Translations under genes and position numbers: made by a program | Shown: positions 5,224 to 7,578 of the stretch, piece by piece | Position numbering within the stretch: position 1 is the first letter of the stretch | How the letters are laid out: each line of letters begins with the position of its first letter | Notes under the pieces: model-generated | Told to the model about the DNA's origin: nothing | The model's input: only the letters and a program-made list of their open reading frames with translations | The model's database searches: none | NCBI GenBank assembly: GCA_018304385.1 | Contig: JAGVWJ010000006.1 | Location: 1 to 41,822 of the forward strand | DNA length: 41,822 bases | Direction of reading: 5' to 3' | Origin: Candidatus Micrarchaeota archaeon | GTDB lineage: Archaea; Micrarchaeota; Micrarchaeia; Anstonellales; Bilamarchaeaceae

Positions 5224-7578
5224 ATGCGAATTCTTACTGTACATTCAGACTATATAGAAGTTGAACCGCTTACTAAGGCGATAAAAGATGCAGAGGAGCT
5301 TCCAGTCAAGGAGAAGAAGCGATATGAAGAAGTGCTGGTTGTATTCACAGCTGTTGAAGAAGGAGATGAAAAAAATATTCAGGGCACGGTAGAGAGATAT
5401 GTCCAAGAAGTAAAGAGTATTGTAGAACAAGTTAAGGCAAAAAATATCCTGATTTATCCGTATGCACACCTAAGTTCAAACCTTTCAAAGCCAAATATAG
5501 CACAAGAATTTCTGATAAAGGCAGAAAAAGAATTATCAAAAGAACTTACTGTTTCAAGAGCACCTTTTGGCTGGTATAAATCATTTAATATTTCATGCAA
5601 AGGACACCCGCTTTCTGAATTAAGCAGAGCGTTTAGTGTTGAAGATGATAGCAATAATCTTCAAGCCATAATGGAGACGATATCACATCTTGTTTATGAT
5701 ACTGCAAAAAAATTAACCGGGAAAGCGTTTATTAGCATTTCAGAGATTAATGGGAATAAATCTATACTTAATTGGAGAGAATTGGATGGAGAGATAACAC
5801 ATGAATTTCTTAAAAAATTAGAAATAGAAGCAAACAAAAATAGAGAAAAAAATCTAGATGTAAAAGAGCAAGAGATGGATAGAAAAGAAGCACTAAAACT
5901 CTGCGGCGATATTTACGATAGATCACTTCCTAGAGAAGCATCTAAAATTAGAGTTGTGGCAATCGGCGATTTACCTCCGGAACCTTGCAGGCACCCTCAC
6001 GTATCCAATACAAAAGAGGTTAAAGAAAAAATTAAAATTGACGGATTTGAAAAAACAGAGGGTAAATTCAGAATAATGATTCATTTGGGGGAAGAAGAAA
6101 ATGCTAAGGACAAAGACTTGAGTAAAGCATTGAAAGCGGAAAAAACATTGGTGTCTCATTTTTACATAATTGGAACTGATGGAAAACTGAATGAAATAAG
6201 CTATGATAAGGAAAAGAAAAAATTTACTGGTTTTGATTTTTCCAAGCATGAAAATTTGAGAAAACTCGTTGCTTATGAACTGACAAAAGATAGAATAGTG
6301 ACTGAGGAGCCACCACATGTAAGGCTGATGAGAAAATTAGAGTTAGTGGATTATGAAGATGGATCAGATCCAGGAAATCTCAGGTACTACCCAAAAGGAA
6401 GATTCATGAAAGGCTTAATTGAAAGATATGTAACTCAAATCATAAAGGAGAACGGGGGAATGGAGATAGAAACTCCCATAATGTATGATTATGAGCACCC
6501 CTCTTTGAAAAGTTACTTGAATAGATTTCCGGCAAGGCAGTATGCTATCGAAACTCCGAATAAGAAGGTGTTTCTCAGATTTGCTGGGTGCTTTGGTGGC
6601 TTCTTGCTGGCTCACGATGCACATATTTCCTATAAACAACTCCCAGTATGGATATACGAGCTAACAAGATACAGTTTTAGAGTAGAACAGAGAGGGGAAT
6701 TATCTGGGCTGAGAAGACTTAGGGCATTTACTATGCCAGATTGTCATGCATTATGCAGAGATGAAGAACAAGCAAAAGAGCAATTGATAAAAAGATTTGA
6801 CTTAAGCCGGGAATTCCAGAATAAAAGTGGGGTAGGATGTGACAATCTAGAATTTGCAGTAAGAGTAACAAAAAAATTCGTTGATGAAAATGGAGATTTT
6901 GTAAAAGGATTAGTTAAAAGATGGGGAAGACCAGCACTTTTGGAAGTTTGGGATGAGCAGTTCTTCTATTTTGTTTTCAAATATGAGTTTAATTTTGTTG
7001 ACGTGTTAGGGAAAGCTTCTACTTTGACTACCGACCAAATCGATGTTGAGAATGGAAAAAGATATGGAATAGAATATATTGATGAGAAAGGACAGAAGAA
7101 AAACCCGTTAATATTGCATTTATCACCTTCTGGAGCAATTGAACGTATTATATATGCATTGTTAGAGAAAGCTGCAATGGATCAACGACAGGGGAAAATA
7201 CCTATGCTACCTTTATGGCTTTCACCAACACAAGTTAGATTAATGCCTGTGTCGAATGAGAAGCATTTAAAATACTGTGAAGAGCTTGAAAAAAAATTAA
7301 GCAAAGAGAGCATTAGGGTTGATATTGATGATAGACAAGAAGGTATTGGTAAAAAAATCAGAGATGCAGGACAAGAATGGATGCCTTACTCAGTAGTTAT
7401 AGGTGATAAAGAACTGGGCAAGCAAGAAATTAATGTAAGAGATAGAGAGAAAAACGAAGAAATCGAAATGAAAATTGATGATCTAGTAAAACTTATAAAA
7501 GAAAAAACAGAAGGCATGCCATTTGACACTATACCAACTCCTAGAAAATTAAGTAAAAATATTATATTTGTGGGTTGA
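5224..7578 (+). CDS. thrS: threonyl-tRNA synthetase, archaeal type, with an inserted AlaX-S-like domain
   Basis: N-terminal editing motif [24 protein letters not shown]; catalytic motifs [22 protein letters not shown] and [12 protein letters not shown]; C-terminal anticodon-binding domain; extra ~146 aa at 5653-6090. Confidence 0.96.
   Translation: [784 protein letters not shown]

Follow-up and report, generated by a model that had tools for sequence, protein, structure and literature searches.

An AlaX-like editing-core domain behind a DTD-like editing domain in a Micrarchaeota threonyl-tRNA synthetase

Threonyl-tRNA synthetases (ThrRSs) proofread, according to a 2024 review, by either an N2 fold, in bacteria and eukaryotes, or a DTD-like fold, in archaea (PMC11295145). 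The N2 domain (E. coli 1qf6, 1tje), with TGS/N1 as its upstream partner, stands just before the catalytic core, whereas canonical archaeal ThrRSs (P. abyssi, M. mazei) run from the editing domain through a linker and the core to the anticodon-binding domain. Both editing folds occur within one ThrRS system in the crenarchaeal split enzyme, which consists of ThrRS-cat, with a degenerate N2, and a separate ThrRS-ed (Korencic 2004, as cited in PMC11260482). Homologous to N2 are the AlaX proteins, among them the free-standing AlaX-S of Pyrococcus horikoshii (PhAlaX-S; PH0574; 1v4p, 1v7o, 1wxo, 1wnu). Here we describe a ThrRS gene in which an AlaX-like editing core follows the archaeal editing domain. 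It lies in a window of 41,822 nucleotides, the whole stretch of DNA that was analysed, on contig JAGVWJ010000006.1 (Table 1). The host is a tiny groundwater archaeon of the Micrarchaeota, represented by a metagenome-assembled genome.

The thrS open reading frame (5218..7578, forward strand) encodes 786 amino acids from the TTG at 5218 and 784 from the ATG at 5224; the 784-residue form, whose length an earlier note on this DNA had given and whose sequence contains all the peptides quoted there, is the version recorded in databases. In a search of the whole genome, its product was the sole ThrRS match and the sole tRNA-Thr_ED match. It belongs among the archaeal ThrRSs by its score against the NCBIfam model PRK03991 (803 bits, with an equivalog cut-off of 484), by all three Pfam domains and by the conserved residues of the editing domain and core. 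The domain order is that of the canonical archaeal enzymes—DTD-like editing domain, linker, class II core, anticodon-binding domain—except for ~150 extra residues between the first two, which the canonical enzymes lack and which form a second editing-type fold. The editing domain, which the earlier note took to be intact, does retain what would be expected: its tRNA-Thr_ED match spans model positions 1–136 of 137, and P116, F117, G118, Y120, K121, G129, H130, P131, S133 and E134 are invariant in 39 ThrRSs, with H84 nearly so. We take these invariant residues to be the catalytic ones, by reference to the P. abyssi structures. In the core, C458, H510 and H634 (C456, H508 and H632 in the 784-residue form), presumably the residues that bind zinc where threonine is recognised, are invariant across the ThrRS alignment, and the core of E. 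coli ThrRS matches that of the thrS product with a VIA Z of 30.7. Alignment with the nearest ThrRSs, which are 633–641 amino acids long and 70–75% identical, bears out the estimate of ~146 additional residues behind the editing domain, these relatives passing directly from editing domain to linker. Likewise, 221–228 amino acids separate the core motif from the editing domain's end in carriers of the insert, versus 65–118 in 112 insert-less ThrRSs.

Table 1. Features of thrS and its product; positions are those of the window.
Feature	Position	Strand	Details
thrS, threonyl-tRNA synthetase	5224..7578	+	784 aa from ATG; alternative start codon, TTG at 5218
Archaeal DTD-like editing domain (tRNA-Thr_ED), apparently intact	5224..5631	+	Pfam, aa 3-138, E 2e-49
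Inserted AlaX-like editing-core domain, aa ~146-292	5653..6093	+	Absent in nearest ThrRSs; AlaXM, PhAlaX-S, AF2, Foldseek
E153-T-I-S-H157, HxxxH motif with Glu for the first His	5674..5688	+	E153 codon GAG at 5674; H157 at 5686
tRNA_SAD-matched stretch, aa 244-283	5947..6066	+	Pfam, E 1.9e-6, 28.2 bits on the whole protein, cut-off 24
C257-R-H-P-H261, CxxxH motif after the family signature LPPEP	5986..6000	+	C257 at 5986; H261 at 5998
Linker typical of archaeal ThrRSs, SKALKAEK... to EEPPHV, which picks up again behind the insert	6115..6297	+	Alignments
Class II catalytic core, tRNA-synt_2b, aa 442-651	6541..7170	+	Pfam
Anticodon-binding domain, HGTP_anticodon, aa 672-763	7231..7506	+	Pfam, E 5.5e-25

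Both the curated profile and the predicted structure assign the insert to the tRNA_SAD/Edit-AT superfamily: tRNA_SAD exceeds its cut-off on the whole protein, reaches 31 bits on the insert alone and scores 33.2 bits at the thrS insert in a six-frame search of the genome, and the AF2 model of the insert (pLDDT 90.5, pTM 0.84) adopts the editing-core fold with confidence. The insert aligns to positions 99–230 of 234 in the AlaXM model (E 1.5e-11), scoring 44.5 bits there versus 19.3 with the thrS model, and of all solved structures it is PhAlaX-S (1v4p/1v7o) that its sequence matches best (E 7.5e-9, residues 13–156 of 157), similarity to E. coli N2 (1tje) being marginal (E 0.64 only). In Foldseek the predicted structure matches 1v7o, 1v4p and 1wnu with a TM of 0.82–0.84 and an rmsd of 2.2 Å (probability 1.00 for 1v7o/1v4p), with E-values of 1.8e-10 for AlaX versus 1.4e-5 for ThrRS N2; AlaRS, AlaX-M and mitoribosomal proteins are also among the fold matches. 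Two unrelated proofreading-type folds in one ThrRS, as had been proposed from the letters of the sequence, are thus recovered by profiles and predicted fold alike.

In size the insert corresponds to AlaX-S, comprising the editing core but neither the N-terminal domain that AlaX-M has nor the C-Ala that AlaX-L has, and it shares with PhAlaX-S the fold, the second His, the Cys, the last His and the absence of the central Gly of CXGXH (CNKEH in PhAlaX-S). That Gly position is occupied by His in the source insert and by Asn or Lys in the other carriers; the CxxxH pattern itself is retained (C257xxxH261). PhAlaX-S, in contrast, is free-standing with an HxxxH motif, whereas the insert is embedded in a ThrRS and reads E153xxxH157. 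The earlier note had called both the intact CxxxH and the replaced His, and its positions for them prove exact. An invariant Tyr before the Cys loop, Y173, is a hallmark of ThrRS-Ed (PMC12003907), and no Tyr is found in the residues preceding Cys257 of the insert. On these sequence and fold comparisons, we classify the insert as AlaX-type rather than ThrRS-N2-type.

A survey of ThrRSs indicates that this architecture is rare and scattered: the insert is carried by 5 of the 95 ThrRSs of the family and by one Nanoarchaeota MAG, and in a set of 1.84 billion representatives the architecture accounts for two clusters at the 50% level. Word-indexed searches with the inserts of the source protein and of P0123 returned the queries themselves only, the insert having diverged too far for such an index. 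In a tree that took in AlaX proteins of 134–147 and ~246 amino acids, the five family inserts are of a single origin, forming one clade (97/94) that is sister (85/87) to the ~246-residue AlaX-M-like proteins and not to the small ones; the ~246-residue proteins share the motif GDLPPDPC and are annotated as Ser-tRNA(Ala) deacylases. By phylogeny, the insert would descend from this AlaX-M-like subfamily, minus the N-terminal domain, and not from AlaX-S proper. The original description of the insert as AlaX-S-like therefore stands for the size of the core and for the best sequence and fold match, but not for its descent. The ThrRS backbones of the carriers do not form one clade, and in the Nanoarchaeota carrier the module comes immediately before a core of bacterial type, the place that N2 occupies; the module is lost, or was never gained, on neighbouring branches, and ~90% of relatives are without it. 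The five family inserts (38–66% mutual identity) agree without exception in E153, H157, S175, C257 and H261, and the Nanoarchaeota insert keeps the E/H pair (METSCH) and the remaining site residues, such that E/H/C/H is kept in all six known inserts; LPPEPC and the last His are invariant in all carriers. This invariance shows the site to be under constraint. Among carriers, the insert diverges just slightly faster than the core, with identities of 38–66% versus 49–73%, and in GC content it matches the remainder of the gene.

In sister ThrRSs, a second kind of cassette occupies the same linker site. YbaK-type domains (PF04073) are found there in P0005 (= G287), G419, G417, P0104, P0112 and G244, and these YbaK/ProXp-type ThrRSs resemble the carriers in having a trans-editing-type fold in cis, in belonging to the same archaeal groups and in their equally patchy distribution, with five changes on the backbone tree; the INS/YbaK fold itself, however, is unrelated to that of AlaX/tRNA_SAD. 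Relatives with a bacterial-type core retain only a degenerate N2, an arrangement (editing domain, degenerate N2, bacterial-type core) seen in Micrarchaeota G169 and others; the N2 of G169 reads CLPSYI and its HxxxH is missing. In these enzymes, as in the crenarchaeal split ThrRS, the N2 site residues are lost and the DTD-like domain is the sole possible editor, whereas the module keeps its AlaX-type residues.

We lean towards a reading in which the module is an active second Ser-tRNA deacylase in a functional archaeal-type ThrRS, and judge this slightly more likely than not. An AlaX-M-like trans-editor core, minus its N-terminal domain, would have been captured once into ThrRS, and several unrelated backbones now have it where the DTD-like domain meets the core, the place that N2 takes in the bacterial domain order. 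There it may still act, in cis or in trans, as a hydrolytic, serine-specific aminoacyl-tRNA deacylase with an altered Glu-His-Cys-His metal site; its expected job would be that of N2, the removal of Ser from tRNA(Thr) (PMC11295145). Since Zn is dispensable for the activity of AlaRS-Ed and AlaX-M (PMC12003907), the His-to-Glu change need not abolish catalysis. The position also fits an editing role, given that the alternative cassette at this site (YbaK) is likewise of an editing-type fold. Against an active module, the sequence departs from the superfamily's HxxxH and CXGXH motifs in their strict form, most relatives do without the module, and since the DTD-like domain looks intact, a second editor of Ser-tRNA(Thr) seems redundant. 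AlaRS residue R693 goes with specificity for G3:U70 of tRNA-Ala, which it is said to contact, and the change R693K permits editing of Ser-tRNA(Thr); the residue aligned to it, and to E145 of PhAlaX-S, is Arg285 in the source insert and Lys in four other Micrarchaeota inserts. In the full-length AF2 model the domains are colinear with those of E. coli 1qf6, and the module is predicted in an orientation unlike that of N2 and away from the N2 location; an rmsd of 19 Å and a pTM of 0.62 make this model unreliable on the position of the module relative to the core.

The main rival, which we consider rather unlikely, holds that the module has lost catalysis and persists as a relic, in the role of a tRNA-binding or structural spacer. 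Models for such a fate exist in the degenerate N2 of some ThrRSs, in the mitoribosomal mL39 fold (mitoribosomal proteins being among the fold matches of the insert) and in the AlaX-like domain appended to Plasmodium TrpRS, a precedent for the fold on another synthetase (PMC3680381). Moreover, another residue stands in for the first Zn ligand and CXGXH is without its central Gly, Ser-tRNA(Thr) is already covered by the DTD-like domain, and the same family contains dead copies of the fold in G169 and similar enzymes. However, what all six copies conserve despite their divergence is the active site, with E, H, S, C, H and the LPPEPC loop, a conservation that goes beyond surface or core positions, and real decay in this family, as in the N2 of G169, has removed the site residues. 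Glu is, in addition, a competent metal ligand, and Zn is in any case dispensable (PMC12003907). We regard as very improbable a different objection, under which the insert came from a bacterial-type ThrRS as its N2 domain, by inheritance or recombination, and resembles AlaX in look only: all scores favour AlaX (AlaXM over thrS, PhAlaX-S over E. coli N2, and Foldseek), no Tyr occupies the position of the hallmark Y173 or its vicinity, the tree sister is a group of free AlaX-M-like proteins, albeit in a tree without N2 sequences, and the true N2 remnant of relatives (G169) looks quite different. In favour of N2 descent are the place of the insert in the N2 position of the domain order, the Nanoarchaeota copy directly before a bacterial-type core and the homology of N2 and AlaX.

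The module might instead be active on another client: as a tethered AlaX it could edit Ser-/Gly-tRNA(Ala) in trans, or it could clear Ala-tRNA(Thr) produced by AlaRS. This we think improbable. The alignment of Arg285 with EcAlaRS R693 and the Ser-tRNA(Ala) deacylase annotation of the sister group would suit such a role; among the five family carriers, moreover, G070 and G281 (90–91% complete) yielded no free AlaX, and the free AlaX-M of the source genome has Asp for the motif Cys (ADGGPH). Yet the AlaRS editing site of the source genome is intact (HHSVTH / ACGGTH), free AlaX is kept in the other three family carriers, and the Lys found at the R693 equivalent in four Micrarchaeota copies is the residue with which AlaRS edits Ser-tRNA(Thr). 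Furthermore, the three clear tRNA-Thr genes of G070 (43 tRNAs), two fully Watson-Crick and one with U4:G69, contain no G3:U70 or G4:U69, and Ala mischarging of tRNA-Thr is therefore not expected. Two specific proposals, clearance of Ala-tRNA(Thr) and compensation for a lost AlaX or a broken AlaRS editing site, are accordingly not supported; the loss of free-standing AlaX raised in the earlier note does not apply to the source genome, and free AlaX shows no consistent pattern across carriers. In G000, where the tRNA search gave 4 RF00005 and 2–3 ARAGORN matches, tRNA-Thr is unreadable. An assembly or binning artefact would be in keeping with a metagenome-assembled source, but its probability is negligible: the identical protein is present on 17 contigs, which come from ENA, JGI and Logan assemblies (at least seven), made with different assemblers from different samples and with 0–2 synonymous differences, and is therefore, at the level of contigs, not a chimera. 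In three runs, which belong to three studies, single contigs cover 5000–7700 and with it the two junctions, without a joint, and the same architecture recurs in five further species.

A literature search for two-editing-domain ThrRS, DPANN ThrRS, PF08915 and ThrRS–AlaX fusions, with subscription journals outside its coverage, found the architecture undescribed; it is neither common nor reported in the searchable literature. The source ThrRS holds in one chain both kinds of fold that the 2024 review presents as alternatives, with the site residues of each conserved. If the second site is active, the enzyme would be a naturally occurring synthetase whose two post-transfer editing sites are unrelated, as well as a living example of an AlaX-type trans-editor recruited into ThrRS, the origin proposed for N2. 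The Glu-His-Cys-His site is, in addition, a natural variant that bears on the debate over the Zn site of this fold (PMC12003907). That a YbaK-type cassette can take the same site, and that insert and backbone trees disagree, suggests that quality-control domains are exchanged as modules in small-genome archaea. More tentatively, and as a possibility that we hold with less than even confidence, the editing/core junction of DPANN ThrRSs could be a docking site for mobile AlaX- and YbaK-like cassettes, yielding two active, unrelated post-transfer editing sites. Cassettes may move among unrelated backbones, the AlaX-like one replacing a decayed N2 on a bacterial-type core, and their movement may be aided by a LAGLIDADG/wHTH gene convergent to thrS. 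Such a gene lies convergent to thrS in three genomes, which have three different thrS types.

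The thrS gene of the window encodes the sole ThrRS match and the sole tRNA-Thr_ED match in its whole genome, scoring 803 bits against the NCBIfam archaeal ThrRS equivalog (PRK03991; cut-off 484); protein collections store the 784-aa form. Aligned with its closest relatives (633–641 aa, 70–75% identical), the enzyme shows a single break: once the editing domain has ended (…GHPLSELSR), about 150 extra residues come in before the usual linker starts (…SKALKAEK). An assembly chimera is excluded for practical purposes, because independent assemblies carry the fusion and five further species share the architecture. 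Seventeen contigs encode the identical 784-aa product, with the same neighbouring genes and 0–2 synonymous base differences; the assemblies are those of ENA, JGI, and Logan, cover several samples, and were made with different assemblers. In three runs, each from a different study, positions 5000–7700 lie on an unbroken contig free of joints and indels, and a fourth covers both insert junctions; this spanning evidence consists of contigs rather than reads, and the samples may include the window's own source. GC and GC3 of the insert are in line with those of the rest of the gene.

The earlier note had described the insert as AlaX-S-like, and sequence and fold both bear this out. Searched alone, the 146-residue stretch it delimited covers AlaXM model positions 99–230 of 234 (E 1.5e-11), with a further match to the editing portion of archaeal AlaRS; its best solved relative by sequence is P. 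horikoshii AlaX-S (PhAlaX-S; 1v4p, 1v7o, 1wxo, 1wnu; E 7.5e-9, residues 13–156/157), and E. coli ThrRS N2, the bacterial-type editing domain, reaches only E 0.64. A confident AF2 model of the module from a 26-row alignment (pLDDT 90.5, pTM 0.84) retrieved the same AlaX-S entries as top Foldseek matches (TM 0.82–0.84, rmsd 2.2 Å, 151/153 residues); lower in the ranking came AlaX-M and the editing domains of AlaRS, and ThrRS N2 matched more weakly still. In the alignment, E153 and H157 stand for the first and second His of HxxxH, and C257 and H261 for CxxxH; the codons named for these four residues (5674, 5686, 5986, and 5998) were correct. PhAlaX-S (CNKEH) and the module alike lack the central Gly of CXGXH. 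ThrRS-type editing domains are marked by a Tyr (Y173; PMC12003907), which is absent from the relevant 14-residue stretch of the module. By these matches, the module belongs to the AlaX/AlaRS type and not to the N2 type. Each part is already known; what is new is the way they are put together, the Glu-His-Cys-His site, and the behaviour as a cassette. N2 and the archaeal DTD-like editing domain are still given as alternatives in a 2024 review (PMC11295145), and in the literature searched we came across no account of a ThrRS that joins the two.

Spacing from editing domain to core motif divided 124 ThrRSs into three groups: 112 ordinary enzymes (65–118 aa), those with the AlaX-like insert (221–228 aa), and a third group (239–252 aa) in which a YbaK-type domain (PF04073) takes the position of the insert. 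In a survey of the phylum (401 genomes), the carriers were the window's genome plus four more from its family, and among the 95 ThrRSs found in 99 family genomes it was these same 5 that had the module. Among 1.84 billion cluster representatives searched exhaustively with HMMER, only one other ThrRS had the module (P0123, a Micrarchaeota MAG product annotated merely as threonine--tRNA ligase), and free AlaX-M-like proteins of ~246 aa came next; scanning one genome for each GTDB species by pattern brought in one more carrier, a Nanoarchaeota MAG. These carrier counts are lower bounds, since the searches were specific to this insert lineage. In the Nanoarchaeota enzyme, the DTD-like domain and the module lead directly into a bacterial-type core, so that the module occupies the exact place of N2; this copy, 52% identical to that of the window, is its nearest relative (motifs METSCH and PPEPCIKPH).

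Other family members are built differently. ThrRSs of ~800 aa hold a complete YbaK-superfamily domain (YbaK_EbsC positions 4–151 of 152) at the same editing-domain/core junction, in at least four other family enzymes including one genome of the window's genus. A third architecture, typified by G169, joins the DTD-like domain to a degenerate N2 and a bacterial-type core, and also occurs in G288, G423, G406, G164, G261, G104, and G244. Its N2 remnant (CRGPHV replaced by CLPSYI, no HxxxH) is not called by Pfam, the region matches 6vu9/1nyq/1qf6 at E 5e-45, and its core is 30–32% identical to that of the window. The G244 enzyme combines DTD-like and YbaK-type domains with a long further region, presumably a degenerate N2 as in G169, and a bacterial-type core.

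Features of the window and of compared loci
Feature	Position	Strand	Remarks
thrS ORF	window 5218..7578	+	786 aa from TTG; 784 aa from ATG at 5224
tRNA-Thr_ED	aa 3-138		Pfam, E 2e-49
tRNA_SAD	aa 244-283		Pfam, 28.2 bits (cut-off 24)
tRNA-synt_2b	aa 442-651		Pfam
HGTP_anticodon	aa 672-763		Pfam
226-aa ORF upstream of thrS	window 3725-4405	+	LAGLIDADG-like motif YLAGLFDSVGG
LAGLIDADG_3 + winged-helix gene	window 7585-8622	-	convergent, immediately downstream of thrS
LAGLIDADG_3 + winged-helix gene, G246	L049:2885-3868	-	61% identical to window copy
LAGLIDADG_3 + winged-helix gene, Nanoarchaeota	L103:4699-5829	-	30% identical, E 3e-23
Nanoarchaeota ThrRS, MAG H51-bin106_1	L103:2539-4716	+	JBBSZB010000086.1, 726 aa
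Free AlaX-M, window's genome (G000:C33)	L002:1489-2220	-	244 aa, HTAAH + ADGGPH
YbaK-type ThrRS, P0005	L029:523-2934		G287
YbaK-type ThrRS	L036:1501-3900	-	G419, window's genus
YbaK-type ThrRS	L057:319-2712	-	G417
YbaK-type ThrRS	L059:672-3473	-	G244, 934 aa, window's genus
YbaK-type ThrRSs, P0104 and P0112			
ThrRS with degenerate N2	L060:664-2889	+	G169

All five inserts of the family fall into one clade (97/94), whose sister (85/87) is an AlaX-M-like subfamily sharing F-x-x-x-S, W, CG, and GDLPPDPC; the free AlaX-M of the window's genome lies elsewhere in the insert tree. On a tree of ThrRS backbones built without the insert columns, the carriers are scattered, requiring five changes, all five forced by well-supported branches, and YbaK-type carriers are likewise scattered (five changes). 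Constraining the four other family carriers together, a group named after the tree was seen, was 416 log-likelihood units worse (p-AU 8e-77). The window backbone clusters with insert-less enzymes and one YbaK-bearing enzyme (100*), and its DTD-like domain is 68% identical to those of these kin versus 53% to that of the Nanoarchaeota enzyme. With one insert clade on scattered backbones, the module was captured once and then either moved from backbone to backbone or was lost very many times; the bacterial-type backbone of the Nanoarchaeota enzyme favours movement.

As to function, we lean modestly towards an active serine-specific deacylase, predicted to back up the DTD-like site, because of the conserved site, an evolutionary rate near that of the core, the contrast with the decayed N2, and published work on AlaX and AlaRS. 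Thirty-four positions are invariant across the five family inserts (mutual identity 38–66%); these include every residue of the LPPEPC loop as well as E153, T154, H157, S175, C257, and H261. S175 aligns with the Ser of the AlaRS QxGS motif. The Glu, His, Cys, and His are also kept in the Nanoarchaeota copy, and the insert evolves only slightly faster than the ThrRS core. Zn is dispensable for AlaRS and AlaX-M editing (PMC12003907); PhAlaX-S removes Ser from tRNA(Thr) and tRNA(Ala) alike, and in vivo eukaryotic AlaX acts as a proofreader for ThrRS (PMC11260482). The main rival, a non-catalytic module serving as tRNA-binding element or spacer, appears rather unlikely against this conservation. 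A possible lead against a Ser-tRNA(Thr) backup is Arg285, aligned with PhAlaX-S E145 and EcAlaRS R693, where the four other family copies have Lys: R693 goes with recognition of G3:U70, and the R693K change makes AlaRS more permissive toward Ser-tRNA(Thr) (PMC11260482). The full-length AF2 ThrRS model follows the domain order of E. coli ThrRS, pairing the module with N2 and core with core, without recovering the placement of N2 (rmsd 19 Å, pTM 0.62).

Explanations by compensation were not supported: the window's genome has a free AlaX-M and an intact AlaRS editing site, as well as a free YbaK-like gene, and free AlaX is kept in three of the five family carriers. Nor was AlaRS mischarging of tRNA-Thr, as the tRNA-Thr genes of G070, another family carrier, lack an inviting G:U pair. 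G070 has 43 tRNAs, whereas the window's genome (65 contigs, 1.53 Mb, 89% complete) gave only 4 tRNA matches by Rfam RF00005 and 2–3 by ARAGORN. In ADGGPH of the free AlaX-M, Asp replaces the motif Cys, as in P0136 and P0142, which suggests a subfamily that uses Asp as ligand.

The 226-aa ORF upstream of thrS had no Pfam match. A LAGLIDADG_3 gene with a winged helix directly follows thrS, in convergent orientation, in three genomes whose thrS types all differ; this gene is possibly a homing-type element associated with the locus. Free-standing LAGLIDADG_3 genes number only about four in the window's genome.
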